In this document: positions 5,261 through 56,392 of the stretch, in pieces
How positions within the stretch are numbered: the stretch's first letter is position 1
How the letters are laid out: the number at the start of each line of letters is the position of its first letter
DNA from: a virus
Strand: one strand, 5' to 3'
DNA length: 64,000 nt
Virus record (IMG/VR): IMGVR_UViG_3300024239_000013
Coordinates: 33,142-97,141 of that record
Notes under the pieces: model-generated
Database searches by the model: none
Seen by the model: only the letters and a program-made list of their open reading frames with translations
Told to the model about the DNA's origin: nothing
Program-made: the position numbers and the translations under genes

Positions 5261-5284
5261 GGCAGGTTGATTCCTGCTTTTTTT
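5261..5284 (+). terminator. rho-independent terminator-like hairpin (GCAGG-TTGATT-CCTGC followed by a T-run)
   Basis: Stem-loop plus T-run read in the sequence. Confidence 0.4.
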
Positions 5285-5526
5285 GCGCAGATTCCATAGG
5301 TCTGAGAGTTTTTATTCAAATTCATATATCACAATAAAACAATCAGTATGGTATTTATTATACGCATTCTTAAATGCAGCAAAGTGATTTACAGAAACTC
5401 GCTAAAAAAAGATCTCTATGTCTTTATCCTAACAAAAACCGGACAATGTTTTAGAGATATATAAAACAGAACAAAATAAAAGGTGAATTGTATAAAAAGG
5501 CGGACAATAAAAAAATCCCAAAAAAT

Positions 5527-6354: not shown

Positions 6355-6368
6355 TATAAAGAAGCATA

Positions 6369-7064: not shown

Positions 7065-7080
7065 TATAATATAAAGCAAC

Positions 7081-7965: not shown

Positions 7966-7984
7966 TATAATATAAAGAAGCATA

Positions 7985-8869
7985 ATGAAAAGAATCTCAA
8001 ATTATAAAACATTCATAAACGAAAGCTCGAGTGAAAGTACGCTAACACCTGAACAAATTAATTTCCTTAACAATTATGTTAAGGGATATTGGAAGTTGAA
8101 TGCTGATGGAGTTGTTGATGTAGATGGCCATTTTAGTTGTTTCAATAAAGGGTTATCAGACTTTAAAGGAATAGTGTTTGGAAAGGTTAATAGAGATTTT
8201 GATTGTTCAAACAACAACTTAACCTCATTAGAAGGCTGTCCAAAAAAAGTTGGGGGAGATTTTTTTTGTTATGTTAACAAATTAACCTCTTTAAAAGGAT
8301 CGCCAAAAGAGGTTGGTGGTAGTTTTATTTGTTCAGGTAATAACATAATCACATTGGAAGATGCACCTAAAAAAACCAGAAGAAGCTTTGATTGCTCACA
8401 TAATAAATTAACATCATTAGAATTCGGTCCAAAAGAGGTTGGAGGCAATTTTAACTGCTCGCATAATAAATTAACATCATTAGAAGGTGCTCCTGAAGAA
8501 GTTGGTGTGGATTTTTATTGTTATTATAACGAATTGAATAATCTAAAGGGTTCCTCGTATGTAGTTGGAAGAGATTTTAACTGCTCGGATAATAAATTAA
8601 CATCATTAGAAGGAGCTCCAAAAGAAATTGGAGATGATTTCATATTAGAAGATAATGAAGGTGTTTCTTCAGAAATCTTAAAAGAGATATTTAGAAAAAT
8701 GTTAGAATCCAAATTGGACTATAAAACAGTTTTAAAATCTTTATGGAAAGAAATCTCAATAGAAGATAAAATACTTTTATACACACCAGATCTAGACTGG
8801 GTTGAAGAAGATGAAGGGTCCAAATTAGTTAAGCTAAAGAAGTATAGCAACATAAAGAAAATGATCTAG
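7985..8869 (+). CDS. targeting-sequence/LRR-like tandem family member 4
   Basis: Paralog architecture. Confidence 0.8.
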   Translation: MKRISNYKTFINESSSESTLTPEQINFLNNYVKGYWKLNADGVVDVDGHFSCFNKGLSDFKGIVFGKVNRDFDCSNNNLTSLEGCPKKVGGDFFCYVNKLTSLKGSPKEVGGSFICSGNNIITLEDAPKKTRRSFDCSHNKLTSLEFGPKEVGGNFNCSHNKLTSLEGAPEEVGVDFYCYYNELNNLKGSSYVVGRDFNCSDNKLTSLEGAPKEIGDDFILEDNEGVSSEILKEIFRKMLESKLDYKTVLKSLWKEISIEDKILLYTPDLDWVEEDEGSKLVKLKKYSNIKKMI

Positions 8870-8883
8870 TATAAATCAGCATA

Positions 8884-9828
8884 ATGAAAAGAATAATAAA
8901 TTATAAAACATTCGTAAATGAAAGTTCAGGTGCAAGTACACTGACAACTGAACAAATAGATTTCCTTAACAGGTATGTTAGGGGGAAATGGAAGTTGAAT
9001 GCTGGAGTTGTTGATGTTGATGGCGATTTTGATTGTTTTAGTAAAGGGATATCAGACTTTAAAGGAATAGTGTTTGGAAAGGTTAGCGGAGATTTTGATT
9101 GCTCACGTAATAATTTAAGTTCTTTAAAAGGTGCTCCTAAAGAGGTTGGTGGACATTTTGATTGTTCACATAACAACTTAAAATCATTAGAAGATGCACC
9201 TAAAAAAACTGGACGTAGTTTTTATTGTTCGTATAATAAATTAACCTCATTAGAATTTGCTCCGGAAAGGGTGAGAAGTAGTTTTCATTGTCAGAATAAC
9301 AGCTTAACCTCATTAGAAGGAGCTCCTAAAGAAGTTGGAGGGTATTTCGATTGCTCAAGCAACAACTTAACCTCATTAGAAGGAGCTCCAAAAGAGATTG
9401 GGTATGATTTCGATTGCTCACACAACAACTTAACCACATTAGAAGGCTGTCCAAAAGAAATTGTTGAAGATTTCGATTGCTCACACAACAACTTAACCAC
9501 ATTGGAATTCTCTCCAGAGAAAGTTGGTGTTAATTTTTATTGCTTCAATAACAACTTAATTTCATTAAAAGGAGCTCCAAAAGAGATTGGATATGATTTC
9601 ATATTAAAAAATAATGAAGGAGCATCATCAGAAATCTTAAAAGAGATATTTAGAAAAATGTTAGAATCCAAATTGGACTACTCTGATGTTTTAAAATCCC
9701 TTTGGGATGAAATACCAATAAAAGATAAAATAGTTCTATATACCCCTGATCTAGACTGGGTTGAAGAAGATGAAGCGTCTAAATTATCTAAGTTAAAGAA
9801 GTATAGCAACATAAAGAAAATGATCTAG
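8884..9828 (+). CDS. targeting-sequence/LRR-like tandem family member 5
   Basis: Paralog architecture; 9 repeat units. Confidence 0.8.
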   Translation: MKRIINYKTFVNESSGASTLTTEQIDFLNRYVRGKWKLNAGVVDVDGDFDCFSKGISDFKGIVFGKVSGDFDCSRNNLSSLKGAPKEVGGHFDCSHNNLKSLEDAPKKTGRSFYCSYNKLTSLEFAPERVRSSFHCQNNSLTSLEGAPKEVGGYFDCSSNNLTSLEGAPKEIGYDFDCSHNNLTTLEGCPKEIVEDFDCSHNNLTTLEFSPEKVGVNFYCFNNNLISLKGAPKEIGYDFILKNNEGASSEILKEIFRKMLESKLDYSDVLKSLWDEIPIKDKIVLYTPDLDWVEEDEASKLSKLKKYSNIKKMI

Positions 9829-9842
9829 TATAAATCAGCATA

Positions 9843-10727
9843 ATGAAAAGAATAATAAATTATAAAACATTCGTAAATGAAAGTTCAGGTGCAAGTACAC
9901 TGACAACTGAACAAATAGATTTCCTTAACAGGTATGTTAGGGGGAAATGGAAGTTGAATAATGATGGGGTTGTTGATGTAGATGGGGATTTTAATTGTTT
10001 TAATAAAGGGTTATCAGACTTTAAAGAAATAAAATTTGGAAAAGTTACAGGATATTTTGATTGCTCTAAGAACAACTTAACCTCATTAGAGGGTTCACCA
10101 AAAAAAGTTGGTGTAGATTTTTATTGTAGTCATAACAAATTAACCTCATTAGAAGGAGCGCCTATAGAAGTTTATAGAAGTTTCGATTGCAAGGGTAACA
10201 AATTAACCTCGTTAGAATTCGGTCCAAAAAAGGTGGAGGGAAATTTTATTTGTTCAATTAACAAATTAACCTCGTTAGAATTCGGTCCAAAAGGAGTTCC
10301 TGGAACTTTCAATTGTTCATTTAACAAATTAACCTCGTTAGAATTCGGTCCAAAAGAAGTCGGAAGTAGTTTTAATTGCTCATTTAACAACTTAACCTCA
10401 TTAGAATTCTCTCCAGAGAAAGTTGATGTTGATTTTTATTGCTCGAATAATAAATTAACATCATTAGAAGGTGTCCCAAAAGAAATTGGTGGATATTTCT
10501 GGTGTTCTTATAATGTTGGACTATCGACAGATATAATAAATCTTATATTCAGAAAAATGATAAAGTATAGATCTGATTATAAAACAGTTTTAAAATCTTT
10601 ATGGAAAGAAATCTCAATAGAAGACAAGATACTTTTATATTCATCAGATCTAGATTGGATTGAAGAAGATGAAGCGGCTAAATTAGCTAAGTTAAAGAAG
10701 TATAGCAACATAAAGAAAATGATCTAG
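9843..10727 (+). CDS. targeting-sequence/LRR-like tandem family member 6
   Basis: Paralog architecture; 5' region nearly identical to member 5 at the nucleotide level. Confidence 0.8.
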   Translation: MKRIINYKTFVNESSGASTLTTEQIDFLNRYVRGKWKLNNDGVVDVDGDFNCFNKGLSDFKEIKFGKVTGYFDCSKNNLTSLEGSPKKVGVDFYCSHNKLTSLEGAPIEVYRSFDCKGNKLTSLEFGPKKVEGNFICSINKLTSLEFGPKGVPGTFNCSFNKLTSLEFGPKEVGSSFNCSFNNLTSLEFSPEKVDVDFYCSNNKLTSLEGVPKEIGGYFWCSYNVGLSTDIINLIFRKMIKYRSDYKTVLKSLWKEISIEDKILLYSSDLDWIEEDEAAKLAKLKKYSNIKKMI

Positions 10728-10741
10728 TATAAATCAGCATA

Positions 10742-11689
10742 ATGAAAAGAATAATAAATTATAAAACATTCATAAACGAAAGCTCGAGTGAAAATAACTT
10801 GACACCTGAACAGATATATTTCCTGAACAAGCAGATTAAGGGGAAATGGAAGTTGAATGCTGATGGGGTTGTTGATGTTGTTGGAAATATCCATTGTTCA
10901 CATAGAGAAATATCGGACTTCAAGGGAATAAAATTCGGAAAAGTTACTGGGTATTTTGATTGCTCAAATAACAACTTAACATCATTAGAGGGTTGTCCAA
11001 AAGAGGTTGGTGGACATTTTTATTGTTCATATAACAGCTTAACATCATTAGAGGGTTGTCCAAAAGAGGTTGGGGGACATTTTTATTGTCAACGTAACAA
11101 CTTAACCTCATTAGAAGGTGGTCCAGAAAGAGTGAATGGAGATTTCATTTGTTATGGTAACAAATTAGCTTCATTAGAATTTGGACCCAAGGAGGTTAGA
11201 GGTACTTTCGATTGCTCAAATAACAAATTAACATCCTTAGAAGGATGCTCTAAAGAGGTGAATGGAGATTTCGATTGCACATATAACAAATTAACATCAT
11301 TAGAATTCTCTCCAGTTAAAGTTGGTGGTACTTTCGATTGTTCAGATAATAACTTAACCTCATTAGAATTTGGACCTGAAGATGTTGGGGGAGGCTTTAA
11401 TTGTTCCCGTAATAAATTAACCTCATTAGAAGGAGCTCCTAAAGAAGTTGGAGGTACTTTACGATGTTTTTATAATGAGGGTTTATCAAACGAAACAATA
11501 GGTCTTATATTTGAAAAAATGATAAAATCCAGATTGGATTATAAAACAGTTTTAAAATCTTTATGGGGAGAAATACCAATAAAAGATAAAATAGTTCTAT
11601 ATACCCCTGATCTGGATTGGGTTGAAGGAGATGAAGCGGCTAAATTATCTAATCTAAAGAAGTATAGCAACATAAAGAAAATGATCTAA
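10742..11689 (+). CDS. targeting-sequence/LRR-like tandem family member 7
   Basis: Paralog architecture. Confidence 0.8.
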   Translation: MKRIINYKTFINESSSENNLTPEQIYFLNKQIKGKWKLNADGVVDVVGNIHCSHREISDFKGIKFGKVTGYFDCSNNNLTSLEGCPKEVGGHFYCSYNSLTSLEGCPKEVGGHFYCQRNNLTSLEGGPERVNGDFICYGNKLASLEFGPKEVRGTFDCSNNKLTSLEGCSKEVNGDFDCTYNKLTSLEFSPVKVGGTFDCSDNNLTSLEFGPEDVGGGFNCSRNKLTSLEGAPKEVGGTLRCFYNEGLSNETIGLIFEKMIKSRLDYKTVLKSLWGEIPIKDKIVLYTPDLDWVEGDEAAKLSNLKKYSNIKKMI

Positions 11690-11705
11690 TATAATATAAA
11701 AAAAC

Positions 11706-12653
11706 ATGATGAAAAGAATAGTAAATTATAAAACATTCATAAACGAAAGCTCTGGTGAAAATAACCTGACCCCAGAACAAATTGATTTCCTTAACAACTA
11801 TGTTAAGGGGAAATGGAAGTTTAATGTTGGAGTTGTTGATATTGATGGCGATTTTAGTTGTTTCGATAGAGGAATATCTGACTTTAAAGGAATAGTGTTT
11901 GGAAGGGTTACCGGTCATTTTGACTGTTCGGATAACAACTTAACATCATTAGAAGGTTGTCCAAAAGAGGTTGGTGGAAATTTTTATTGTCATTATAACA
12001 ACTTAACCTCATTAGAAGGTTGTCCAAAAGAGGTTGGCGGACATTTTTATTGTCATTATAACAACTTAACATCATTAGAAGGTTGTCCAAAAAAAGTGAA
12101 TGGAGATTTCGATTGCACAGATAACAACTTAACCTCATTAGAATTCGGTCCAAAAGAGATTAATGGACATTTTTATTGTTATGATAACAGCTTAACCTCA
12201 TTAGAATTTGGTCCCGAAAGAGTGAATGGAGATTTTGATTGTTCGAATAACAACTTAACCTCATTAGAATTTGGACCCAAAGAGGTTGGTGGTACTTTCG
12301 ATTGCTCACGTAATAACTTAAGCTCGTTAGAAGGTGTTCCTGAAAAGCTGAACGGAGTTTTTTATTTCTCATGTAACAAATTAACCTCATTAGAAGGTGC
12401 TCCTAAAAAACTAGGATCACAATTTTTTTGTGAGAATAATGAAGGGATATCAACCAAAACGATAAATCTTATATTTGACAAAATGGAAACCTCCAAATCT
12501 GATTATAAAACAGTTTTAAAATCTTTATGGAAAGAAATACCAATAGAAGATAAAATACTTTTATACACCCCAGATCTTGATTGGGTTGAAGAAGATGAAG
12601 GGTCTAAATTAGCTAAGTTAAAGAAGTATAGCAACATAAAGAAAATGATCTAA
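11706..12653 (+). CDS. targeting-sequence/LRR-like tandem family member 8
   Basis: Paralog architecture. Confidence 0.8.
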   Translation: MMKRIVNYKTFINESSGENNLTPEQIDFLNNYVKGKWKFNVGVVDIDGDFSCFDRGISDFKGIVFGRVTGHFDCSDNNLTSLEGCPKEVGGNFYCHYNNLTSLEGCPKEVGGHFYCHYNNLTSLEGCPKKVNGDFDCTDNNLTSLEFGPKEINGHFYCYDNSLTSLEFGPERVNGDFDCSNNNLTSLEFGPKEVGGTFDCSRNNLSSLEGVPEKLNGVFYFSCNKLTSLEGAPKKLGSQFFCENNEGISTKTINLIFDKMETSKSDYKTVLKSLWKEIPIEDKILLYTPDLDWVEEDEGSKLAKLKKYSNIKKMI

Positions 12654-12671
12654 TATAATATAAAGAGCACA

Positions 12672-13367
12672 ATGAAAAGAATAGTAAATTATAAAACTTT
12701 CATAAATGAAAGTGCAGGTGCAAGTACACTGACTTCAGAACAGATAGATTTCCTTAACAACTATGTTAAGGGGAAATGGAAGCTGAATGGTGAAGGATTT
12801 ATTGATATAGATGGTGATTTTAGTTGTTTCGATAAAGGGTTATCAGACTTTAGATGGATAAAATTTGGAAAAGTTACAGGGTATTTTTATTGTTCATATA
12901 ATGGATTGACATCATTAGAGGGAGCACCAAAAAAAGTTGGTTTGAGTTTTTATTGTCATAATAACAAATTAACATCATTGGATGGCTCTCCTAAAGAGAT
13001 TGGTGGAAATTTCGATTGCTCTGACAACAAATTAACCTCATTAGAATTCTCACCCGAAAGTGTAAAGGGGAGCTTTGATTGCTCATATAACAACTTAACA
13101 TCATTAGAATTTGGTCCTAAAGAAGTTGGCGGAGATTTACGATTTTCTCATAATGAGGGATTGTCAACCAAAACGATAGGTCTTATATTTGACAAAATGG
13201 AAAAGTCCAAATTGGACTATAAAACAGTTTTAAAATCTTTATGGAAAGAAATACCAATAGAAGATAAAATACTTTTATACAATGCGGATCTAGATTGGAT
13301 TGAAGGAGATGAAGCGGCTAAATTAGCTAAGTTGAATAAATATAGCAACATAAAGAAAATGATCTAA
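12672..13367 (+). CDS. targeting-sequence/LRR-like tandem family member 9 (short, fewer repeats)
   Basis: Paralog architecture. Confidence 0.8.
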   Translation: MKRIVNYKTFINESAGASTLTSEQIDFLNNYVKGKWKLNGEGFIDIDGDFSCFDKGLSDFRWIKFGKVTGYFYCSYNGLTSLEGAPKKVGLSFYCHNNKLTSLDGSPKEIGGNFDCSDNKLTSLEFSPESVKGSFDCSYNNLTSLEFGPKEVGGDLRFSHNEGLSTKTIGLIFDKMEKSKLDYKTVLKSLWKEIPIEDKILLYNADLDWIEGDEAAKLAKLNKYSNIKKMI

Positions 13368-13386
13368 TATAATATAAAGAAACATA

Positions 13387-14271
13387 ATGAAAAGAATAGT
13401 AAATTATAAAGCATTCATAAACGAAATCTCGAGTGAAAATAACTTGACACCAGAACAGATAGATTTCCTTAACAGGTATGTTGAGGGGAAATGGAAGTTG
13501 AATGCTGATGGAGCTGTTGATGTAGATGGCGATTTTAGTTGTTTCGATAAAGGGTTATCAGACTTTAAAGGAATAGTGTTTGAGAAGATTAGTGGAGATT
13601 TTGACTGTTCGGCTAACAGCTTAATATCATTAGAAGGTTGTCCAAAAGAGGTTAATGGATATTTTTATTGTCATTATAACAAACTAACCTCATTAGAATT
13701 TGGTCCTGAAAGTGTAGATGGAGATTTCGATTGTTCGAATAACAATTTAACTTCATTAGAATTTGGACCCAAAGAGGTTGGTGGAAATTTTGACTGTTCA
13801 TACAACAAATTAACCTCATTAGAAGTCTGTCCAAAAAAAGTTGGGGGAACTTTCAATTGTTCATTTAATAAATTAACATCATTAGAATTCAGTCCAAAAG
13901 AGGTTGGTGGTAGTTTCAATTGCTCATTTAACAACTTAACATCGTTGCAATTCTCTCCAGAGAAAGTTGATGCTTATTTTCATTGTTCAAATAACAACTT
14001 AACCTCATTAGAAGGGGTATCAAAAGAAGTTGGAGGGAATTTAAGATGTTTTTATAATGAAGGGCTATCAACCGAAACAATAAATCTTATATTTGACAAA
14101 ATGATAAAGTCCAAATTGGACTATTCTGATGCTTTAAAATCTTTATGGAAAGAAATACCAGTAGAAGACAAAGTACTTTTATACACACCCGATCTAGATT
14201 GGGTTGAAGAAGACGAAGCGTCTAAATTAGCTAAGCTAAAGAAGTATAGCAGCATAAAGAAAATGATCTAG
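13387..14271 (+). CDS. targeting-sequence/LRR-like tandem family member 10
   Basis: Paralog architecture. Confidence 0.8.
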   Translation: MKRIVNYKAFINEISSENNLTPEQIDFLNRYVEGKWKLNADGAVDVDGDFSCFDKGLSDFKGIVFEKISGDFDCSANSLISLEGCPKEVNGYFYCHYNKLTSLEFGPESVDGDFDCSNNNLTSLEFGPKEVGGNFDCSYNKLTSLEVCPKKVGGTFNCSFNKLTSLEFSPKEVGGSFNCSFNNLTSLQFSPEKVDAYFHCSNNNLTSLEGVSKEVGGNLRCFYNEGLSTETINLIFDKMIKSKLDYSDALKSLWKEIPVEDKVLLYTPDLDWVEEDEASKLAKLKKYSSIKKMI

Positions 14272-14285
14272 TATAAAGAAGAATA

Positions 14286-15233
14286 ATGAAAAGAATAGTA
14301 AATTATAAAACTTTTATAAACGAAAGTTCAGGTGCAAGTACACTGACAACTGAACAGATAGATTTCCTTAACAGGTATGTTAAGGGGAAATGGAAGTTGA
14401 ATGATAATGGAGTTGTTGATGTTGATGGTGATTTTAGTTGTTCCGATAAAGAAATATCAGACTTTAAAGGAATAATATTTGGAAAAGTTACCGGTCATTT
14501 CTATTGCTCAAGTAACAACTTAAGATCATTAGAAGGTTGTCCCAAAGAGGTTGGAGGGGGTTTCAATTGCTCACGTAATGAATTAACATCATTGGAAGGT
14601 TGTCCAGAAAGGGTGAATGGAGATTTCATTTGTTATGGTAACAACTTAACCTCATTAGAAGGTTGTACAGAAAGAGTGAATGGAGATTTCATTTGTTCGG
14701 CTAACAACTTAACCTCATTAGAAGGCTGCCCTAAGGAAGTTGAGGGATTTTTCAATTGTTCATTTAATAAATTAGCTTCTTTAGAAGGATGTCCTGGAGA
14801 AATTGGAAGTAGTTTTTATTGTTCGTATAACAAATTAACCTCATTAGAATTTGGCCCAGAAATGGTGAATGGAGATTTCGTTTGTTCAGATAACAAATTA
14901 ACCTCGTTAGAATTCAGTCCAAAAGAAGTTGGTGGTAATTTTATTTGTTCAGATAACAACTTAACATCATTAGAGGGAATATCAAAAAAAGTTGGGGGAT
15001 CTTTATGGTGTTCTTCTAATGAAGGACTATCAACCGAAACGATAGATCTTATATTTGATAAAATCATAAAGTTCAAATTGGACTATTTGGATGCTTTAAA
15101 TTTTTTATGGGAGGATATCCCAATAGAAGATAAAGTACTTTTATACACACCCGATTTAGATTGGATTGAAGGAGAGGAAGCGGTTAAATTATCTAATCTA
15201 AAGAAGTATAGTAAAATAAAGAAAATGATATAA
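14286..15233 (+). CDS. targeting-sequence/LRR-like tandem family member 11
   Basis: Paralog architecture. Confidence 0.8.
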   Translation: MKRIVNYKTFINESSGASTLTTEQIDFLNRYVKGKWKLNDNGVVDVDGDFSCSDKEISDFKGIIFGKVTGHFYCSSNNLRSLEGCPKEVGGGFNCSRNELTSLEGCPERVNGDFICYGNNLTSLEGCTERVNGDFICSANNLTSLEGCPKEVEGFFNCSFNKLASLEGCPGEIGSSFYCSYNKLTSLEFGPEMVNGDFVCSDNKLTSLEFSPKEVGGNFICSDNNLTSLEGISKKVGGSLWCSSNEGLSTETIDLIFDKIIKFKLDYLDALNFLWEDIPIEDKVLLYTPDLDWIEGEEAVKLSNLKKYSKIKKMI

Positions 15234-16698: not shown

Positions 16699-17661
16699 AT
16701 GACAGAAGAAAAACTTTTTAGATGGACTAATTATTCAGTAAAGTCACTAGAAAATTTAATTGAAGGGATGGAAAAACATCATCCGGAAGATTATAAAAAG
16801 ATAAAGGAAATAAGTGATCGTTTACTATTGTATTATAGGGGAGATAATATATTAACAGAAAAACAAAAAAATACTCTAGATTCTTTATCTAAAGATTGGT
16901 ACATATCACCAGAAAACGGAGGGGTTAATATTGGATATATGTATGCTTCGGATTGGGGATTATCCATTAAAAATTATTGGGAAGAGGATACGGAATCTGC
17001 GAGAAAAAAAAGACTAAAGCTTTTTGAGGATCTTAAAAAAATAAAATTTAATGAGGTTTATTCTCTTTCTTTGAGATCGTGTGGATTAGAAGAATTTTGG
17101 CCAAATATGCCAAAAAGAACTTCTAGATTTGATTGTTCCTATAATAAGATAGAAAGTCTAGTTGGAGGTCCAGAATATGCTAGTGAATACGATTTCTGTG
17201 GGAATAATATTAAAAGCTTTGATGGGTTACCTGACAATGTTAAAGAATTAGATTGCAGTCATAACCCAATAGAGGATTTTTCAACCCTAAAAGTTAAAGA
17301 ATTATTAAGGTTTAGATGTCGGGATACACATATAAAAAATCTAATAGGTTGTCCTAAAGTTACAACCTTTTTAGACGTATCAGGATGTAAGTTAACCTCA
17401 GTTGAAGGAGCCCCGTTAAATTTAACCTTAAGAGAGGTTAATTTTGGGGAAAATGTGGTTAGTGAAAAAACATTAAAACTTGCTTTCAATGCAATGAAAA
17501 AAGCTAAAGGAGATTATGGTAAAGGATTGGATAAAATATGGAAAAAAATACCTATAGAAGACCAAATACAAATGTATAAGGACAATCCAAATCTTACTAA
17601 TGATGAGGTAAAAAAATATTACAATTTAAAAAAATATTTTGATATAAAAACTTTTATATAA
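16699..17661 (+). CDS. divergent member of the LRR-like family; lacks the targeting-like start but keeps F-D-C-S-x-N repeats and the conserved C-terminal domain
   Basis: FDCSYNKIESLVGGP and LDCSHNPIEDF repeats; C-terminal GDYGKGLDKIWKKIPIEDQIQMY...NLKKYFDIKTFI parallels the family C-terminus. Confidence 0.6.
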   Translation: MTEEKLFRWTNYSVKSLENLIEGMEKHHPEDYKKIKEISDRLLLYYRGDNILTEKQKNTLDSLSKDWYISPENGGVNIGYMYASDWGLSIKNYWEEDTESARKKRLKLFEDLKKIKFNEVYSLSLRSCGLEEFWPNMPKRTSRFDCSYNKIESLVGGPEYASEYDFCGNNIKSFDGLPDNVKELDCSHNPIEDFSTLKVKELLRFRCRDTHIKNLIGCPKVTTFLDVSGCKLTSVEGAPLNLTLREVNFGENVVSEKTLKLAFNAMKKAKGDYGKGLDKIWKKIPIEDQIQMYKDNPNLTNDEVKKYYNLKKYFDIKTFI

Positions 17662-19379: not shown

Positions 19380-19961
19380 TTATTCCAGAGTAATGGTAAT
19401 TTTGGATCCCGTCGATTTAACTAATTTTTGTAAATTAGAGAAAAATTCAACTAGTTCTAAAGATTTGTCTAATGTTTTTTCCGGCCCTAAATTTACCTGT
19501 ACCTTTCTATTTTCCATCAATTTTTTTCTAAGAATGATTGATGTTTTTGTTCTGTTTAGAGATTTGGCCATATCACCAACCGACATTTTATTTGACATCA
19601 TTTGTTCTAAAGCTAAAATTTCACTGTCTGTCCATCTTCTTCTTCTTATAGACTGATCATTTTTTAAAGGCGTTCCGTTTTCATTAGAATCCCTATCCTG
19701 AAATTTTCTCAAGTTTTTTGCAAACTTCATAGCAGAAACTGCAGCAAAACTTCTACCTAATTTCTTTGAAATTTCATTAACCGTCATTTTTTCATCTACC
19801 ATTTTTTTCAATTCTGCTAACTCGCTATCTGACCATCTTCTCGATTTAGCCCTTTTTGAAATCTTTTTTGTTTTAGCAGATTTTACTTTAGCATTTCCGT
19901 GATTCAAAACTGAATGGTAGTTTTTTACTGATGAAGGTTTTGATGATTTTCTTGTTCTCAT
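19380..19961 (-). CDS. basic DNA-binding protein with two tandem Myb/SANT-like helix-turn-helix repeats (RRWSDSELAELKKMV...MTVNEISKKLGRS and RRRWTDSEILALEQMM...MSVGDMAKSLNRT)
   Basis: Internal duplication with W...E...L and helix-turn-helix-like segments; lysine/arginine-rich. Confidence 0.5.
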   Translation of the reverse strand: MRTRKSSKPSSVKNYHSVLNHGNAKVKSAKTKKISKRAKSRRWSDSELAELKKMVDEKMTVNEISKKLGRSFAAVSAMKFAKNLRKFQDRDSNENGTPLKNDQSIRRRRWTDSEILALEQMMSNKMSVGDMAKSLNRTKTSIILRKKLMENRKVQVNLGPEKTLDKSLELVEFFSNLQKLVKSTGSKITITLE

Positions 19962-21849: not shown

Positions 21850-22011
21850 TAATCAGGACAGGGTTCGAACCTGTACGATTAAGTTTTTCCTAGTGAATAT
21901 CTAAATTAACTTTTGGTTTTGCTAATCTCTGAATTCACCTTGGTTACGTCTGCCTACCCACTTAATCTAAAAACCATATTAAATAGCGTCTACCAATTCC
22001 GCCACCTGATC
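21850..22011 (-). tRNA. tRNA-like gene of about 162 nt. 5' end GAUCAGG-UG-GCG-GAAUUGGUAGA-CGC (type-II Leu/Tyr/Ser-like acceptor and D-arm); 3' end ACAGG-UUCGAAC-CCUGU-CCUGAUU-A (T-arm and acceptor). They are separated by about 110 nt instead of about 30, so it carries insertion(s) or intron(s). The insert holds a candidate anticodon hairpin GGUGA-AU-UCA-G...UCACU (anticodon UCA, which would read UGA)
   Basis: Hand folding of the reverse complement; the 7-bp acceptor pairs, including one G-U. Confidence 0.5.
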
Positions 22012-22081
22012 TTATTTTATTATTGTTAATTCTTTTTATAATAAAATCCTAGAAATTTTTATTTAATTTATTTTTATTATT

Positions 22082-22330
22082 CTATGATTCGAATTTTAAA
22101 TAATCGCCATCTCTCTGATCTAGGATAAGATTAACTTTACTCCATCCGGCTTTTATGTATCTGTCTCTAAGAACATAAAAATGAGTATGATCTAGACCAG
22201 ATGGGATTCGTATGTATATGCTCTGACCTTTTGATATTGATTTTTTAGATAATCTGGAATCTATCTCTTTTTCGTATAGATCTACATCTTCTTGAAATTT
22301 TTCTATTAATTTTATTGGTGATATTGCCAT
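22082..22330 (-). CDS. hypothetical protein
   Basis: 82-aa ORF. Confidence 0.45.
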   Translation of the reverse strand: MAISPIKLIEKFQEDVDLYEKEIDSRLSKKSISKGQSIYIRIPSGLDHTHFYVLRDRYIKAGWSKVNLILDQRDGDYLKFES

Positions 22331-22453
22331 TTTTTATCTATTTTTTTATATTTTATTAAGAAACCCATATTCGATTTCTTACATATATTAATACATTTCT
22401 AACTTAGCCAAAACAAAATTATGTATTATGATAAATGTGACTTATATTTTTAA

Positions 22454-22753
22454 TTATAATTCACTGTTAAATCTACTTAAATCCTGAGAATAGTCTATTT
22501 CTGTGTGGGGATAAATAGGAAATTCTGGTACATTGTATTCTAAATCCAATTCAGAAAGATAAGCGATCCCTCCGTTTGTCAAACTACCTCCTTTGATGTA
22601 AACATAATGTCACCTTTCGTCATTGTAGACATGTTCGTCTGAGATAAAAATAATAGGTTCACACGCCAAATATTGGTCTGATAAGCTTTTGATTGTAAAT
22701 TTTGAATTTAATCTGACTCTAACCCCTCTTGCAATTTGATTAGATTTTATCAT
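22454..22753 (-). CDS. hypothetical protein (100 codons) interrupted by a single in-frame TGA at 22610-22612: MIKSNQIARGVRV...HVYNDER-[TGA]-HYVYIKGGSLTNGGIAYLSELDLEYNVPEFPIY...
   Basis: Both halves are open in the same frame (47 and 52 codons) in an AT-rich context where random ORFs of that length are unlikely; not in the supplied track. Confidence 0.5.
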
Positions 22754-22771
22754 AAATGTTTTTTTTTTATA

Positions 22772-22900
22772 TTACCAGGACAGGATTCGAACCTGCATCT
22801 CCTTATCAATGGCACCTGGAACTTTCACACATCAATGTGACTGATAAATTCACACTCTGAAGCTACTCCTTCTTGCGTCTTCCGATTCCGCCACCTGGAT
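22772..22900 (-). tRNA. second tRNA-like gene of about 129 nt. 5' end AUCCAGG-UG-GCG-GAAUCGGAAGA-CGC; 3' end GCAGG-UUCGAAU-CCUGU-CCUGGUA-A; about 80-nt middle section (contains CUUCAGA). Two acceptor pairs are mismatched as read
   Basis: Hand folding; 5' and 3' portions are paralogous to the 21850-22011 element. Confidence 0.4.
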
Positions 22901-25397: not shown

Positions 25398-26267
25398 TTA
25401 ATATCTAACTATAGGAACTAAAACCTCAGATACAAATTCCTCCATGTCATTTATTGATATTTTATCTAGTGTATCATCATCACTATGACAAAGCCACCAT
25501 GAAGAGTTATCTAGATAACCCTCGCTCGTTTTTATACTAGATTCACCCTCTAATAAAATAGGAAGAGGATTTATAACATTCGTGTCTATACCATATCTTG
25601 ATAAAATATAACAATCACTACCCGGTGTTGGGTGGATTGGAGGATCAAATAAGTTTTTTATGTGTTCTGTTAGTTTTCCTTGATGTGAACCTATCATAAA
25701 ATTTTTACCTCCCTTACCAGAAAGCTCTAGATTAAGAACCCATTCAATTTCACCAAATTCTCCTTCCGTTATTTGTTCTGCCAATCTTTTTGCACCTCTA
25801 AAACCAACTTCTTCCGCATCGGTTATTACTACATTTATCTCAGGGACTAAGTATTTAAGATATATTGCATTTATGACTGAAGCTGAATTATCGTTGGCAT
25901 TCTGTGAATTTGGATTAATTATATCATGATGTGCTATCACCATTCTTTTACTTTCTCCCTTCATAACTATATTATAAAGCTTTGTACCAAGATCGTCAAA
26001 CTCATCTATTACGTATTCTATCCCATATCTTTCCAAAAGATCTGAGATGAATTTTACTCTTGGTGTAGGTTCTAAAGTATTATAAAATGCATTGCCAACA
26101 TTTTTAACCTGACAAAATTCATTTATTGATTGGAGTATTGGATGCATATAAAAATTATTTTCTGTAAATGTATGATATGAATGCGAAATTAAAAAATATA
26201 TATATAGAAAAATTAATTTTTTTATATAATATGTTAAATTTAAAAACTTTCGCTCTTTTTGAATCAA
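25398..26267 (-). CDS. Zn-dependent peptidase-like protein (M28/M20-family signature HHDII...NANDNSASV...DAEEVGFRGA)
   Basis: His / Asp / Glu-Glu metal-ligand pattern typical of co-catalytic zinc exopeptidases. Confidence 0.45.
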   Translation of the reverse strand: MIQKERKFLNLTYYIKKLIFLYIYFLISHSYHTFTENNFYMHPILQSINEFCQVKNVGNAFYNTLEPTPRVKFISDLLERYGIEYVIDEFDDLGTKLYNIVMKGESKRMVIAHHDIINPNSQNANDNSASVINAIYLKYLVPEINVVITDAEEVGFRGAKRLAEQITEGEFGEIEWVLNLELSGKGGKNFMIGSHQGKLTEHIKNLFDPPIHPTPGSDCYILSRYGIDTNVINPLPILLEGESSIKTSEGYLDNSSWWLCHSDDDTLDKISINDMEEFVSEVLVPIVRY

Positions 26268-31027: not shown

Positions 31028-32923
31028 TTATTTTTTGTCTTTCTTTTCTGATTTATCATCTTCTGACGAATCTTTCATAATATCTTTCTTTTGTGATTTT
31101 TCTTGAATTTGTTTTAAAAGCTCCATTCCGAGTAATCCTGAAATTGGTCCATTTCCAACATCGTTACCAGAGATTAAAATTTCTGGGATAATTTTAATTC
31201 CATTTGTACCAATCATTTCAGTAACTTTTAATTTTCCGAAATTATCTTCTCCCATAGCTTTAACCTGTTTCTCATAAGCTTCAGCAGTTGCTTTACCGAT
31301 AGCTGAGATTTTAGATGCCTCAGCATCGCCGGTTAATTTAATCTGGGCAGCTTCAGCTTCAGCCATTAGTTTCTTAGCTTTGGATTCAGCTCCAGCTTTT
31401 AACTCAAGAGCTTTAGCTTCTCCTTCTGATTTTTTAACAGCAGCTTCAGCTTCACGTTGTGAGATTTCTACCGATTGCTGAGCTGATACCATTTGACCTT
31501 GCATATTTGCTAATGCTTTTGCTGATTCTAGTGTCTTACGTTGGTCTTGTGCTTTTCTCTGGGTTTCGAATGTAATCTCCTCTTCCTGAGCAATCTTACG
31601 ATCTGTTAAGGTTTTCATTAAAGATTCTGGCGGAACAATATCACCGATCAAGGTATCTACTGCATGAACGTTATATTCTTCTAGTACTTTAGAAATACTT
31701 ACTTTAGCTGCGTCTTGACGTTGTTGTCTTGTAGATAAAAATGAAATAACATCTGAATCTTGAGCGGAGTTTCTGAAATAGTTCCCGATTGTAGGTTCAA
31801 GAACCTGAGATACTAAATTTGACATAGATCCAAATCTTGCAATAACTTTAGGTGCTTCGTTAGAAGGAATGTGAATAATCTGAGATACGTCTAGATTGAA
31901 TGGAAATCCATCTTTAGATCTAACCGTAATTGTGCTCAGGTTTTTATCCAGATCATGAGATTCCGAACGAGCTGTAGCCCAATTGAGTACTAGGTTTGTT
32001 GTAGGAACTATTTCAATTTTCTGAGTATATGGATTGATAGCGTATTTACCTGGATCTAGTGGAGTTATCCATACGCCCCTTTGCCCTTTCTTAACTATAT
32101 TTCCGTGTTTAAATCCATCACCAGTTGTGTCTTCTCCTTCCTCCCCTACATAAGAAATAACTACACCGACGTGACCGATTGGAATCTGAGTCATTTCTCT
32201 CTTTTCAATTTCTACTGCCCAGGGGTTTAGTGAATATGATCCTGCTTGAATAACCTGTACCTGTAAACCTCTCTGACCTCCGTTTTCTAAGAATTTATCA
32301 AAATTTTGAAAGTTGTTGTGTCCTTCAATAGGTGAACCTGCAATAGATCCAGGAGATAGCGGGATACCGTCTAATGCTGTTACCACTCCGACCATTCCAT
32401 CTTCAATGTAAGTAATGTCTGCGATAAGAACATCAAATAAAAATTTATTGATACGATACACCCCGTTATTAAGATATCCTACTTGTTTACCCCTTTGCCC
32501 CCCTTTTGTCAAGAAAGCCCTACTGTCTTGGAAATTATCACAGTCTATATTTCTTGCTAAAATTGACCCAGTTGGAAGAGGTAACCCGTCTTTAGCAGAA
32601 AGTAATCCAATTTTACCTCTAGGTATTTCTGTTAAATCTGCCATTTCAACTGAGTATTGCCAAATCCAATATCCCCAATATAAACCGGGTGCTAAAGTGT
32701 CTGCCTGAAACCCTGCTTCTCCATTAAGAGCGATGATTTTTCCGTCGGGTAATGATTTATTTTCACCAAAAAGAACAAATTTCTTGGTAACGAGACCAAT
32801 TTTATCTTCTGGGATTATAACCATACCAAAGAAAACCCTCAGTGTAAATTTATAAAATACAATCAATAATAATGGAACTAATACCCATCCGAATTTTAAT
32901 AATAAGCTTAATGCTAAATCCAT
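31028..32923 (-). CDS. flotillin-like SPFH/band-7 membrane protein
   Basis: N-terminal transmembrane helix; SPFH-like core; long Ala/Glu/Lys-rich coiled-coil (AEAEAAQIKLTGDAEASKISAIGKATAEAYEKQ) as in bacterial flotillins such as YqiK. Confidence 0.65.
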   Translation of the reverse strand: MDLALSLLLKFGWVLVPLLLIVFYKFTLRVFFGMVIIPEDKIGLVTKKFVLFGENKSLPDGKIIALNGEAGFQADTLAPGLYWGYWIWQYSVEMADLTEIPRGKIGLLSAKDGLPLPTGSILARNIDCDNFQDSRAFLTKGGQRGKQVGYLNNGVYRINKFLFDVLIADITYIEDGMVGVVTALDGIPLSPGSIAGSPIEGHNNFQNFDKFLENGGQRGLQVQVIQAGSYSLNPWAVEIEKREMTQIPIGHVGVVISYVGEEGEDTTGDGFKHGNIVKKGQRGVWITPLDPGKYAINPYTQKIEIVPTTNLVLNWATARSESHDLDKNLSTITVRSKDGFPFNLDVSQIIHIPSNEAPKVIARFGSMSNLVSQVLEPTIGNYFRNSAQDSDVISFLSTRQQRQDAAKVSISKVLEEYNVHAVDTLIGDIVPPESLMKTLTDRKIAQEEEITFETQRKAQDQRKTLESAKALANMQGQMVSAQQSVEISQREAEAAVKKSEGEAKALELKAGAESKAKKLMAEAEAAQIKLTGDAEASKISAIGKATAEAYEKQVKAMGEDNFGKLKVTEMIGTNGIKIIPEILISGNDVGNGPISGLLGMELLKQIQEKSQKKDIMKDSSEDDKSEKKDKK

Positions 32924-34505: not shown

Positions 34506-34831
34506 TACTTAAATCTTTTTATAACTTTAAGTTTATCTATTTCAAATGCCATTTCTTCTAGTGACTTAGTTTCAAATATTATTTCATTTTTATCAACATC
34601 CATCATTACTCTATCATACTCACCAGTTTCTTTATTTCTTACTACGAAACAAGCCACTTTTAAAGAATCGTTCTGCTCACCAGATCCCCATAATACTGAT
34701 TTATCGACTGCGTGTCTTGTGCTTATTTTGTCATGAAACCACTCGTGTGTTTCTGACTCCCAATACAAACCATCTCTTTCTAAAAATTCGTTTCTTTCCA
34801 TACTTATTTTTCTGTTGTTGGTTTTAGCCAC
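34505..34831 (-). CDS. hypothetical protein
   Basis: 108-aa ORF. Confidence 0.45.
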   Translation of the reverse strand: MAKTNNRKISMERNEFLERDGLYWESETHEWFHDKISTRHAVDKSVLWGSGEQNDSLKVACFVVRNKETGEYDRVMMDVDKNEIIFETKSLEEMAFEIDKLKVIKRFK

Positions 34832-35547
34832 ATTCCATTACTAAAAATGATCTGAATTATTCTTGGATTAATTTTCTTTATATTTTCTAATAGCTCAAGT
34901 GTTTTGATAGTGTCTTCTTTGAACATCTTAAATATCTCCTCCCTTATTCTTTCCTGAGAAACAACCTTTTCTAATTTATCGATAACTTCTTCGTTTGAAC
35001 AAACTTTCATAATCTCTTCCGAAATAGTAAATCCTTTTGTTACTGAAAATCTAAAAGCTCGTATAAGTCTTAATGGATCATCTAGCATGGTCTTTTCGGT
35101 TTCTAATGGTGTTATTAGGATTTTATTTTTCAAGTGCTCTAGACCACCAAAATGATCTATAATTCGACCATATTCATCTTTTGCTAAAGCATTCAAAGTA
35201 AAATCTCTTCTTTTTAAGTCGTCGTTAAGATTACCTGGTTTTATTATAGGTTGTCTAGTTCCTGGAAAATAACCAACCTCTTTTCTTGACATTACAAAAT
35301 CTGCAACCCCCTGATATTTGTGATTTGCTGGGAATTGTGCTCTTATTGTAAAACAATCGGGATGTGTTACAAATATTCTGAAACCCTCATTATTCAAATA
35401 GGTTTCCAGAATAGTAAACATTTCATAAGCTGTATAGTCTCTTGACAATAAACTTTCATACGGAACTGCTACATAATCAACATCCTTTGAAACCAAACCT
35501 AAAATTTCATCTCGGACCTTTCCTCCGACTTCGTAAAATGTAAACAT
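34804..35547 (-). CDS. minimal tRNA nucleotidyltransferase (CCA- or A-adding enzyme head domain; polymerase beta superfamily)
   Basis: GGKVRDEILG...DVDYV motif, RRDFTLNALA motif and DPLRLIRAFRF motif are the class-II CCA-adding head-domain signatures. Confidence 0.7.
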   Translation of the reverse strand: MFTFYEVGGKVRDEILGLVSKDVDYVAVPYESLLSRDYTAYEMFTILETYLNNEGFRIFVTHPDCFTIRAQFPANHKYQGVADFVMSRKEVGYFPGTRQPIIKPGNLNDDLKRRDFTLNALAKDEYGRIIDHFGGLEHLKNKILITPLETEKTMLDDPLRLIRAFRFSVTKGFTISEEIMKVCSNEEVIDKLEKVVSQERIREEIFKMFKEDTIKTLELLENIKKINPRIIQIIFSNGMWLKPTTEK

Positions 35548-47416: not shown

Positions 47417-47490
47417 AATAAGTTTCCTTTTATTTATATATCTCTTATTTATATAAAAAACAATAAATAATCAGTCTTTTTAATAACTTT

Positions 47491-56386: not shown

Positions 56387-56392
56387 AATTAT

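Follow-up and report, generated by a model that had tools for sequence, protein, structure and literature searches.

Phage tRNA-Leu-like elements with irregular centres as candidate genes for non-decoding RNAs

Introduction

The study of tRNA mimics, among them tmRNA, Y RNAs, and viral TLS elements, has revealed a new piece of biology in each case. According to one report, tmRNA is processed by RNase P (PMC3985003), and YrlA of M. smegmatis undergoes both cleavage by RNase P and the addition of CCA (PMC4201824). For tRNA-Leu, the bacterial identity set comprises A73, U8-A14, A15-U48, G18-U55, and G19-C56, and deletion of the anticodon stem-loop lowers the affinity of the Aquifex leucyl-tRNA synthetase (LeuRS) only 2.5-fold (PMC2377443). 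Among phages, T4 produces two adjacent stable RNAs, RNAC and RNAD (species 1 and 2; 139 and 119 nt), which are encoded in the tRNA region of a genome that also carries RNA ligases and whose functions are still unknown. In the laboratory, Ponchon and Dardel reportedly engineered a "tRNA scaffold" in which the anticodon arm is swapped for an arbitrary RNA and the tRNA body is said to secure processing and to shield the RNA from nucleases in vivo.

Here, we analyze two tRNA-Leu-like elements, E1 and E2, in a 64,000-nt stretch of viral DNA (the window). On balance, the sequence comparisons lead us to read each of them as encoding a non-decoding RNA that descends from a phage tRNA-Leu gene and in which a scaffold processed like a tRNA carries copy-specific cargo. 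They belong to a large class of phage RNAs, apparently with mostly Bacteroidota as hosts, that appears to be undescribed in the searchable literature.

Results

An initial annotation of the window had proposed two paralogous, over-long tRNA-like genes, and its coordinates, strand, and lengths (162 nt for E1 and 129 nt for E2, minus strand) proved correct (Table 1). The D-arm and the GGUUCGAAYCC T-arm that it described are intact in both elements, the D-arm being of Leu type, and its estimates of about 110 and 80 nt between these arms agree with the 111-nt (E1) and 78-nt (E2) centers that we measured. The 21-nt motif GGTGGCGGAATYGGWAGACGC, which covers acceptor positions 6 and 7, U8, G9, and the D-arm, is present in exactly two copies in 64 kb (0.01 expected), and the minus-strand T-loop GGTTCGAAYCC is found only at E1 and E2 within the window. 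Profile hidden Markov models (HMMs) of the scaffold, trained on 40 related scaffolds that did not include E1 or E2, detected only four half-sites in the window, all belonging to the two elements (5′ half, E = 8e-8 for E1 and 0.028 for E2; 3′ half, E = 1.5e-6 and 1.5e-7, respectively). Each element is separated from the adjacent ORFs by 15 to 16 nt.

Two further claims were borne out for E1 and at most partly for E2. Canonical ends had been assigned to both elements; E1 has them (G1.U72, six Watson-Crick pairs, A73, and C74), whereas E2 shows A1xA72 and U2xU71 mismatches and U74 in place of C74. High self-complementarity is likewise a property of E1 (z = −2.38 for the whole element; center, Table 1) but not of E2 (z = −0.28 for the whole element). 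The heptamer UUCAGAG, which the annotation had noted in both elements, is not significant, as at least one common 7-mer occurs in half of composition-matched shuffles; a homologue of E2 in viral contig L249 has UUUAGAG at this place. A vestigial Leu anticodon loop was considered as the source of these heptamers and rejected, given that there is no family-wide enrichment and that 7-mer sharing is at chance level.

Searches of GenBank phage DNA returned no similarity to the E1/E2 region or to the surrounding 20 kb, ten small ORFs neighboring the elements had no match in PHROG, and the two flanking ORFs led to no orthologous loci in viral contigs. Antisense targets of the two centers within the window amounted to 12- to 13-nt chance matches only.

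The E1 acceptor forms seven of seven pairs, including one G.U, and E1 passes the general family extraction; its G1.U72 and A2-U71 pairs stand as compensated exchanges against A1-U72 and G2-C71 of the commonest scaffold. The tail is the same as that of genuine tRNA genes of related contigs, and the D-arm presumably matches that of E. coli tRNA-Leu. In the predicted fold of the center, an 18-nt linker is followed by an 8-bp stem (GAUUAAGU/ACUUAAUC) that encloses one small and one long hairpin, the latter consisting of GGUGAAU/AUUCACU, a 4x4 internal loop, an 8-bp helix, and the closing loop AAAACCAAAA. A pseudoknot between linker and center (UGGUU/AACCA) is possible in this model. No relatives of the E1 center were found, including in three contigs that have the E1 acceptor stem, and the fold is therefore without comparative support.

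Over 64 nt, the E2 center shares 86% identity with that of the standard-scaffold element in contig L249, which sits in an otherwise unrelated locus, and a hairpin of these centers shows one compensatory exchange (UGUGA/UCACA versus UGAGA/CUCA). The second copy of the 5′ acceptor strand inside E2, together with the T-arm, produces the sub-threshold "mini-tRNA" match of Rfam.

Table 1. Features of E1 and E2 and putative tRNA-related genes in the window
Feature	Position	Strand	Remarks
E1, complete tRNA-Leu-like element, 162 nt	22011->21850	−	G1 to A73; C74 at 21849
E1 5′ acceptor strand GAUCAGG	22005..22011	−	pairs G1.U72, A2-U71
E1 Leu-type D-arm GCG-GAAUUGGUAGA-CGC	21986..22002	−	positions 10-26; U8 G9 directly before
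E1 center, 111 nt	21875..21985	−	predicted fold, z = −2.85
E1 T-arm ACAGG-UUCGAAC-CCUGU	21858..21874	−	T-loop match, HMM
E1 3′ acceptor strand CCUGAUU	21851..21857	−	then A73 (21850), C74 (21849)
E2, tRNA-Leu-like element, 129 nt	22900->22772	−	A1 to A73; acceptor 5/7 pairs; position 74 = U
E2 D-arm GCG-GAAUCGGAAGA-CGC	22875..22891	−	motif match
E2 center, 78 nt, weakly structured	22797..22874	−	z = −0.15
Second internal copy of E2 5′ acceptor strand, UUCCAGGUGCC	22811..22821	−	Rfam sub-threshold match
E2 T-arm GCAGG-UUCGAAU-CCUGU	22780..22796	−	T-loop match, HMM
PolyA_pol head-domain protein, candidate CCA-adding enzyme	34804..35547	−	context; putative link to E1/E2
YqeY-like protein	38167-38625	−	context; putative link to E1/E2
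Thg1-like 3′-5′ nucleotidyltransferase	38615-39439	−	context; putative link to E1/E2
AAA_33 kinase	55289-55708	−	context; putative link to E1/E2
Metallophos phosphoesterase	55742-56386	−	context; putative link to E1/E2
Rnl1-type RNA ligase	56393-57490	−	context; putative link to E1/E2

Relatives were collected by two independent scans of viral contigs, one with a 3′ scaffold 20-mer and one with the D-arm side. The class is abundant: each scan yielded at least 120 loci, and viral contigs contain over 200 related elements that share this scaffold. Scaffold positions that the search pattern left free are 84 to 99% conserved among the matches listed. When matches were picked by D-arm and T-loop alone (n = 83), all seven acceptor pairs were formed in 69, spanning 34 different acceptor sequences, all compensated; A73 was present in 78% and C74 in 83% of the set selected in this way. 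Across the scaffold, pairing was observed in 99.2% of cells, compared with 76% in shuffled and 34 to 44% in slid controls, and 11 of 15 scaffold pairs vary on both sides. Element length varies continuously between 53 and 181 nt. Of 164 copies, ARAGORN called only 32, and the anticodons that it assigned are incoherent. The scaffold is the "top half plus elbow" of a tRNA, namely, a 7-bp acceptor, U8, a Leu-type D-arm, G18/G19, U48, a T-arm, A73, and C74. E1 has the D-arm, the T-arm, the compensated 7-bp acceptor, and the A73-C74 tail; E2 has both arms with five of seven acceptor pairs and A73-U74; the centers of both are irregular.

A species-genome search gave only 23 matches in 185,579, all on MAG contigs, mostly of Bacteroidota, and all of the family type. 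Up to eight copies occur on some contigs. An unannotated member is present in the stretch 19549-19665 of PQ571275.1, the cultured temperate Bacteroides phage BS-TP2, which infects Bacteroides salyersiae and was found in 33.5% of screened gut viromes (PMC12694917); the class is thereby directly testable. An origin as a host tRNA-Leu copy or attP fragment was rejected, with the scaffold absent from cultured genomes, both halves present, and several copies per contig. Also considered was pT24, a cultured jumbo phage that is the nearest one as judged from a single protein; its odd tRNA-like genes fall outside the class.

In 111 of 142 cases, the element and both neighboring ORFs have one orientation, with a median gap of 67 nt, and some elements are placed in tRNA arrays. 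Genuine tRNA genes of the same contigs end in N73-C74 followed by A or U (327 of 352), and elements and adjacent genuine tRNAs have U-1 and N73-C74 endings in common. About 143 loci (±7 kb) showed no recurrent neighbor protein (the best family occurred in 25 loci), and no transposase or reverse transcriptase was found consistently near the elements.

The centers are 20 to 130 nt long and unrelated in sequence between copies, with 113 of 153 being singletons; relaxed constraint would also give such a pattern of hyperdiversity. Between loci, divergence of the center is all-or-none and not graded. Contigs L179 and L146 have a 56-nt center that is 100% identical between flanks of 91% and 73% identity, a 56-nt center is likewise 100% identical in L245 and L180 with flanks of about 40% and 62%, and in L236 versus L180 the center is wholly replaced between flanks that are 97% and 95% identical, in a locus with 95 to 99% identity elsewhere. 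In these comparisons, centers behave as modules that are kept or exchanged in one piece. The tRNA-like unit as a whole also moves from genome to genome, its limits coinciding exactly with the tRNA-like ends: one 109-nt element is 98 to 99% identical in two neighborhoods that have no tblastx similarity to each other, with homology stopping at position −1/+1 and just past the tail, and the BS-TP2-like contigs have two downstream-flank variants whose divergence starts exactly at the 3′ end. Compensatory changes were found within centers, and centers show more structure than shuffled sequences do (mean z = −0.64, t = −7.6). None of 56 within-locus copy pairs share a center 12-mer, and about 10% of centers contain stray T-arm-like hairpins. 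Apart from the junction UCAUA|CAGG, no motif is common to the centers; spacer-like or antisense matches in 1.1 Mb of contigs were only family copies or 12- to 13-nt chance matches, and an Rfam search of 16 multi-copy loci for known ribozymes and noncoding RNAs returned only tRNA and tmRNA.

The initial annotation had put forward intron-containing or multiply interrupted tRNAs, possibly including an opal suppressor, that would be spliced and sealed by healing and sealing enzymes of the phage. The kinase, phosphoesterase, and Rnl1 that it named are indeed encoded side by side at 55289-57490, and enzymes of tRNA-end repair are numerous in the window, which encodes two RNA ligases in all as well as a Thg1-like and a CCA-adding-like enzyme; ARAGORN in intron mode fits E1 to a tRNA model, with an intron of 71 nt. 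Against this reading, that call is a dubious tRNA-Ile(AAU) with the "intron" placed at a stem/loop junction, and E2 was called only at a noise-level threshold giving 114 calls in the window. ARAGORN at default settings found no tRNA or tmRNA gene, and Rfam at gathering thresholds found no tRNA, group I intron, or tmRNA in the window. The UCA of the anticodon hairpin proposed for E1 lies in the 4x4 internal loop of the long hairpin and not in a 7-nt loop, the predicted E1 fold contains no bulge-helix-bulge motif, and about 45 nt were left over even in the proposed scheme. Opal suppression finds no counterpart in TGA recoding: the window is densely coding in the standard code, the conserved Thg1-like, Rnl1-like, and ClpP genes match their family profiles over nearly full length without read-through, and TGA serves as the stop in 10 of 117 window ORFs. 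No cloverleaf with an anticodon arm was restored: E1 and E2 have no 5-bp anticodon stem closed by a 7-nt loop (U33, R37) right after position 26, and of 239 elements bearing the scaffold, 208 lack an anticodon arm at this place; some members, of 53 to 70 nt, are too short to contain one. Among the centers of 154 non-redundant relatives, 4 contain anticodon-arm-like hairpins (3.6 ± 1.7 in shuffles), and motifs of the Leu anticodon loop show no enrichment; the family centers are not anticodon arms. The intron/suppressor reading is not supported, most decisively because anticodon-like hairpins occur at chance level in these relatives, and we consider the model largely refuted and such tRNAs most improbable. 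The evidence instead favors what the annotation had listed last, processing-dependent tRNA-like RNAs.

Discussion

Should E1 and E2 encode non-decoding RNAs of tRNA-Leu descent, each element would be co-transcribed with its neighbors, RNase P would cut the 5′ end and the tRNA 3′-end pathway the 3′ end, and a CCA-adding enzyme of the host or of the phage, for which the window encodes a candidate, would complete the 3′ end. The released RNAs would be stable, at about 165 nt (E1) and 132 nt (E2). In such molecules, the tRNA scaffold would provide processing, folding, and nuclease resistance, and the center would be the copy-specific working part, possibly a protein- or RNA-binding module.

The scaffold retains the bacterial LeuRS identity elements A73, U8-A14, A15-U48, and G18/G19. 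RNAs of the E1/E2 type may be leucylated, because all known bacterial LeuRS determinants lie in the conserved part and LeuRS is independent of the anticodon arm. When the set is defined broadly, about 22% of its elements have no A73, which argues against obligatory leucylation. A bolder extension, which we put forward tentatively and think rather unlikely, is that phages, chiefly those of Bacteroidota, maintain a repertoire of horizontally exchangeable RNA modules on one leucine-accepting scaffold that the tRNA machinery matures, stabilizes, and possibly charges, with aptamers, decoys, or guides serving as diversifying weapons or regulators in phage-host or phage-phage conflict and being swapped by recombination at the conserved D- and T-arms.

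The same conservation could also mean that only the top half is selected and that the center is tolerated filler. The elements would then be RNase P/RNase Z cleavage signals that segment polycistronic phage transcripts and cap mRNA ends, or decoys that lure host factors recognizing tRNA acceptor ends. Recognition by RNase P, RNase Z, and CCA-adding enzymes falls on the conserved scaffold parts, and the elements are tightly packed and co-oriented within operons; hyperdiverse center length and sequence without a common motif, the unstructured and partly duplicated E2 center, and the stray T-arm-like hairpins, which suggest recombination debris, fit as well. Furthermore, the identical centers in different contexts could reflect very recent transfer instead of selection, and homologous recombination at the conserved arms (D and T) would favor center swapping whether the center is active or not. 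Still, punctuation or decoy function is in our view a minority possibility, as a 56-nt center was fully conserved despite 9 to 60% flank divergence, centers contain compensatory changes and more structure than shuffles, and their divergence is not graded; besides, an ordinary tRNA would be equally good as punctuation, so that the loss of the anticodon arm would go unexplained. Functionless tRNA-Leu pseudogenes, chiefly E2, are quite improbable. E2 may be a decaying copy, considering its two broken terminal pairs, U74, weak 5′-half HMM match, unstructured center, and partial self-duplication. Nevertheless, it keeps the D-arm, the T-arm, and five acceptor pairs, its pair 3:70 is compensated relative to L249, its center is conserved with that contig, and scaffold conservation in E1 and in the whole family is far too high for pseudogenes. 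By analogy with mitochondrial tRNA 5′ editing, the Thg1-like enzyme of the window could possibly rebuild the two mismatched 5′-terminal nucleotides of E2.

The mobility of the unit raises the alternative of a selfish element, useless to the phage, that spreads, for instance, by RNA-mediated insertion or recombination at its ends. The 109-nt unit in two unrelated neighborhoods with homology ending at the presumed mature ends, the E2 homologue in an unrelated locus of L249, and the flanks of BS-TP2-like contigs that split exactly at the 3′ end would all be expected of such an element, and yet we find it quite improbable that this is the explanation: copies in the same genome never share a center, unlike proliferating transposons, transposases or reverse transcriptases are not consistently close by, an unsystematic look noticed no target-site duplications, and so strong a constraint on the scaffold implies that the RNA itself has a role.

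A class of non-decoding tRNA-Leu-derived RNAs would account for a recurrent problem in the annotation of phage genomes, namely, tRNA calls that are odd, over-long, or "undetermined." Compared with type II tRNA-Leu, its members have the same 7-bp acceptor, U8, 3-bp D-stem with GGAAUUGGUAGA loop, A15-U48, GGUUCGAAUCC T-loop, and A73, and they share the C74-only gene ending and the frequent G1.U72 with the phages' own tRNA-Leu genes; unlike tRNA-Leu, they have 20 to 130 unrelated nucleotides in place of an anticodon arm and a regular variable arm and are mostly uncalled by ARAGORN and Rfam. T4 RNAC and RNAD resemble E1 and E2 in size and in being encoded next to each other by a phage, and RNAC ends in a tRNA-like T-arm (CCGGGUUCGAAUCCCGG), but they have no recognizable Leu-type D-arm or clean 7-bp acceptor and sequence homology was not found; they are an analogy and not members of the class, which offers a comparative handle on them.

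Like E1 and E2, tmRNA has termini that form a tRNA-like acceptor/T-arm domain around a large non-tRNA insert, and it may occur in phage tRNA arrays; it is served by an anticodon-independent synthetase, as the class may be. It differs in its G3.U70 alanine identity (pair 3:70 is U-A in E1 and C-G in E2), reduced D-arm, conserved pseudoknots, and tag reading frame, whereas the class has a complete D-arm, shows neither a conserved ORF nor a set of pseudoknots, and extends down to members of 53 to 70 nt; a genuine tmRNA of contig L079 was picked up by the same tool that called none in the window. YrlA and other bacterial Y RNAs, including those of phages, are also non-decoding tRNA mimics with D- and T-arm-like modules. 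However, the "acceptor" of YrlA is a closed hairpin and its termini form the Ro60-binding stem, a topology opposite to that of E1 and E2; the YrlA gene adjoins Ro60, and Rfam gave no YrlA match at E ≤ 10. The engineered tRNA scaffold, finally, is a laboratory device; if our explanation is right and the centers are functional cargo, the phage elements would be its natural counterpart and a new modular repertoire of phage RNAs.

E1 and E2 are not intron-bearing or suppressor tRNAs

E1 and E2, the two over-long tRNA-Leu-like elements of the window, carry the features that the initial annotation had listed for them, i.e., paired 5′ and 3′ ends, U8-G9, a D-arm, and a T-arm. In each, the 5′ strand is complementary to the 3′ end and followed by U8-G9, the D-arm is tRNA-Leu-like, with a 3-bp stem and 11 nt in the loop (GCG-GAAUUGGUAGA-CGC in E1, GCG-GAAUCGGAAGA-CGC in E2), and the T-arm loop is UUCGAAY. 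The 21-nt motif of acceptor end and D-arm occurs twice in 64 kb (0.01 expected), a window scan found the T-loop motif at the E1 and E2 sites, and HMMs trained on 40 related scaffolds (the tRNA-like parts), E1 and E2 left out, recovered the four half-sites of the two elements and nothing else in the window. The canonical ends ascribed to both hold fully for E1; E2 has mismatches at both of its terminal acceptor pairs and a U in place of C at position 74. Relative to the common scaffold, the acceptor pairs G1.U72 and A2-U71 of E1 and the pair C3-G70 of E2 are compensated changes. Between D-arm and T-arm lies a centre of 111 nt (E1) or 78 nt (E2). Both had been described as self-complementary, which applies to the clearly structured E1 centre (z = −2.85) and not to that of E2 (z = −0.15); the UUCAGAG common to the two elements is at chance level. 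Only 16 nt separate the start of E2 from the preceding stop codon, and 15 nt the end of E1 from the next start codon; the flanks of E1 and E2 contain no convincing promoter or terminator.

The outcomes with ARAGORN and Rfam argue against ordinary or interrupted tRNAs. Neither a tRNA nor a tmRNA was detected in the window by ARAGORN at default settings, and at its gathering thresholds Rfam gave nothing there. With introns allowed, ARAGORN called E1 a tRNA-Ile(AAU), a candidate rejected with its 71-nt "intron" placed at the stem/loop junction; E2 was likewise rejected as an intron tRNA, being reported only at a threshold that yielded 114 calls in the window. With Rfam at an E value of ≤10, nothing emerged but a sub-threshold acceptor/T-arm "minihelix" in E2, which arises because the 5′ acceptor strand of this element recurs within it. 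The UCA proposed as an opal-reading anticodon lies in a 4 × 4 internal loop of a long hairpin with no bulge-helix-bulge motif. There is also no need for an opal suppressor, since the standard code gives a densely coding window, whose Thg1-like, Rnl1-like, and ClpP proteins match their family profiles nearly full-length.

The kinase, phosphoesterase, and Rnl1 genes noted previously are indeed present, side by side at 55289-57490. With a second RNA ligase, the YqeY-like protein, and the Thg1-like and CCA-adding-like enzymes, they represent a heavy investment of this phage in tRNA-end chemistry. Despite this dense enzyme set, the 64-kb window has no canonical tRNA. The window also encodes a striking local gene-family expansion, whose members have matches solely to uncharacterised PHROG families (phrog_7816, phrog_21719).

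Coordinates of the elements and genes discussed (window numbering unless stated otherwise)
Feature	Coordinates	Strand	Remarks
E1	22011->21850	minus	162 nt, counted up to discriminator
E2	22900->22772	minus	129 nt
AAA_33 kinase	55289-55708	minus	
Metallophos phosphoesterase	55742-56386	minus	
Rnl1-type RNA ligase	56393-57490	minus	
Second RNA ligase (PF09414 / phrog_968)	45717-48300	minus	split into two ORFs
ORF interrupting second RNA ligase	46448-47416		intein-splicing and homing-endonuclease matches
YqeY-like protein	38167-38625	minus	adjoins Thg1-like enzyme
Thg1-like enzyme	38615-39439	minus	
CCA-adding-like enzyme	34804-35547	minus	PolyA_pol head domain
Paralogous ORFs	5527-15233	plus	tandem array, about 11 ORFs (231-315 aa)
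SPFH/Band 7 protein	31028-32923		631 aa
ClpP protease	52654-53328		
M28 peptidase	25398-26147		
Leucine-rich-repeat protein	16699-17661		
BS-TP2 element	PQ571275.1 19549-19665 (= L259 5001-5117)	same as neighbours	between DUF2303 and NinG genes
L079 array	about 4000-12900 of 94-kb viral contig		about 30 tRNAs, tmRNA (5724-6218), four family elements
pT24 cluster	LC168164.1 191520-192477 (= L263 21521-22478)		Tenacibaculum jumbo phage

A family of tRNA-like phage elements with a common scaffold

Scanning viral contigs with the T-arm and the start of the 3′ acceptor strand as the pattern gave at least 120 loci (loci from all scans carry L-numbers herein) and at least 164 copies, with up to eight per locus among the matches listed. 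Near-universal in these listed copies are a 5′ part consisting of U(−1), AGUCAGG, UG, and GCGGAAU(U)GGUAGACGC, then the variable centre, and a 3′ part consisting of U48, ACAGGUUCGAAUCCUGU, CCUGACU, A73, and C74; positions free of the search-pattern constraint are 84 to 99% conserved, and element length varies continuously from 53 to about 181 nt (median near 102). At L026, L072, L079:4368, and L111, a structured hairpin is found within the D-loop, between GGAAU and GGUAGA, besides the variable centre. The class extends beyond this scaffold: a second scan, starting from the D-arm and allowing a generic T-loop and a long centre, revealed at least 34 different acceptor sequences. Among the matches listed from it, the acceptor is 7/7 paired in 69 and the T-stem 5/5 in 76 of 83 distinct elements, with A73 in 78% and C74 in 83%. 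For 42 distinct scaffolds including E1 and E2, pairing was found in 99.2% of cells (76% shuffled, 34 to 44% slid), although this set was preselected by a complementarity filter and the unfiltered 83 elements give the fair figures; both partners had changed in 11 of 15 pairs, and each of the seven acceptor pairs covaries.

Elements of multi-copy loci lie inside tRNA arrays on the same strand, and among the matches listed, a genuine tRNA is within 500 nt of 49 of 164 copies and both neighbouring ORFs are on the element's strand in 111 of 142 cases (median gap, 67 nt). Among 352 genuine tRNA genes on the contigs listed (L001 to L258), 327 lack an encoded CCA and terminate in N73-C74 with A or U next; U occupies −1 in 69%. 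The gene endings of the family elements are the same, and the elements appear to be treated like tRNAs. Encoding only the first C of CCA looks systematic in the tRNA genes of these phages, implying a particular route of 3′-end maturation.

The centres are modules and not anticodon arms

Among the matches listed, only 32 of the 164 copies receive an ARAGORN call, and the "anticodons" assigned are a jumble including A34 types and 2- or 4-base anticodons. A general extractor applied to the contigs listed returned 239 elements; a regular anticodon arm directly follows the D-arm in 31 (mostly ordinary 71- to 86-nt tRNAs, chiefly Leu-UAA/UAG and Ser-UGA) and is absent in 208. Four of 154 non-redundant irregular centres from these contigs contain an anticodon-arm-like hairpin anywhere (3.6 ± 1.7 in shuffles), and Leu-anticodon loop motifs are not enriched in them. 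Rfam found tRNAs and one tmRNA only at 16 multi-copy loci.

Most centres among the matches listed (113 of 153) have no resemblance to another, no motif is common to the centres, and none of 56 copy pairs from one locus has a 12-mer in common; those of E1 and E2 share none either. Structure in these listed centres as a class exceeds that of shuffles (mean z = −0.64, t = −7.6). Between related elements, conservation of the centre is all-or-none. The 56-nt centre is 100% identical in L179 and L146 (flanks, 91% and 73%), as is that of L245 and L180 (flanks, about 40% and 62%), whereas L236 and L180 have unrelated centres within flanks of 97% and 95% identity and identical scaffold ends; the centre substituted in L236 is similar to that of L155, an element whose acceptor stem differs. 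Whole elements also move: a 109-nt element with a GGUAUCG acceptor is 98 to 99% identical in two neighbourhoods whose 3-kb flanks have no similarity, even by tblastx, and homology begins at −1/+1 and ends directly after the A73-C-A-A tail. Contigs resembling the phage BS-TP2 (L168, L196, L242, and L251 versus L146 and L259) have two downstream flanks, one with ACCA encoded and the other with ACAA, each starting exactly after the 3′ end, which is therefore a recombination breakpoint. E2 has a homologue with a standard scaffold in L249 (a 168-kb contig otherwise unlike the window), with a centre 86% identical over 64 nt and a compensatory exchange in one hairpin. L149 and L212 have a common centre on different acceptor and T stems, with a G-C to A-U compensation in the centre hairpin. 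The centres are thus modules, not filler.

Occurrence, probably mainly in phages of Bacteroidota

GenBank phages lack the AGUCAGG scaffold, and 185,579 bacterial and archaeal species (one genome each) gave 23 matches, all on MAG contigs, mostly of Bacteroidota, and family-type with irregular centres; the elements are therefore not copies of a host tRNA gene. The GGUAUCG-acceptor type matches, at 100% identity, an unannotated stretch of 117 nt in BS-TP2, a cultured temperate Bacteroides phage, that scores 40 bits with the Rfam tRNA model yet lacks an anticodon arm. BS-TP2 was reported in 33.5% of gut viromes screened, in a paper that does not mention tRNA (PMC12694917). DNA comparison of the E1/E2 region and of the surrounding 20 kb with GenBank phages gave no relative of the window's phage; among its proteins, one has its nearest counterparts in Tenacibaculum and Prevotella jumbo phages (hosts both Bacteroidota), and a 266-kb viral contig having another protein in common with the window carries an element of the E1 acceptor type. 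In pT24, the cultured jumbo phage nearest by one protein, a small cluster carries the annotations tRNA-Sup (CUA), "tRNA-Undet" (two genes, with 9-nt anticodon loops), and "tRNA-Pro" (with G33); these genes are odd and tRNA-like, but of another kind.

Proposed function and alternatives

RNase P, 3′-end processing enzymes, and CCA-adding enzymes recognise in tRNA what the family conserves. E1 and E2 are most likely scaffold RNAs that would be excised from an operon transcript and undergo tRNA-like maturation to a stable form, the centre being the part that does the work and differs from copy to copy. In the main rival reading, nothing but the top half is important, serving as punctuation or a decoy; embedding in operons and hyperdiverse centres fit this, but conservation and compensation within centres do not. 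The exact transfer boundaries suggest a selfish element, to which the fact that centres are never repeated within one genome is opposed. E2 may be decaying; more speculatively, the Thg1-like enzyme of the phage might restore the two mismatched nucleotides at the 5′ end of E2.

These scaffold RNAs may also be leucylated. The conserved part has every determinant of leucine identity in bacteria (A73, U8-A14, A15-U48, G18-U55, and G19-C56), and removing the entire anticodon stem-loop lowered affinity for Aquifex LeuRS only 2.5-fold (PMC2377443), so leucine is among the few identities able to survive replacement of the anticodon arm. Leucylation can hardly be obligatory, since about 22% of the broadly defined members among the matches listed lack A73.

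Comparison with known systems

The full-text literature searched contains no description of this class; most subscription journals lie outside it, and a prior description is possible. A survey from 2023 that covers candidate structured RNAs of viruses mentions only five tRNA-like ones, of other types. RNAC and RNAD of T4, whose function is still unknown, are likewise two adjacent stable RNAs of similar size. YrlA is also a tRNA mimic but has the opposite topology and is Ro60 associated. The closest known systems further include tRNA-Leu, as the ancestor, and tmRNA, whose topology and logic are the same but whose identity and contents differ.
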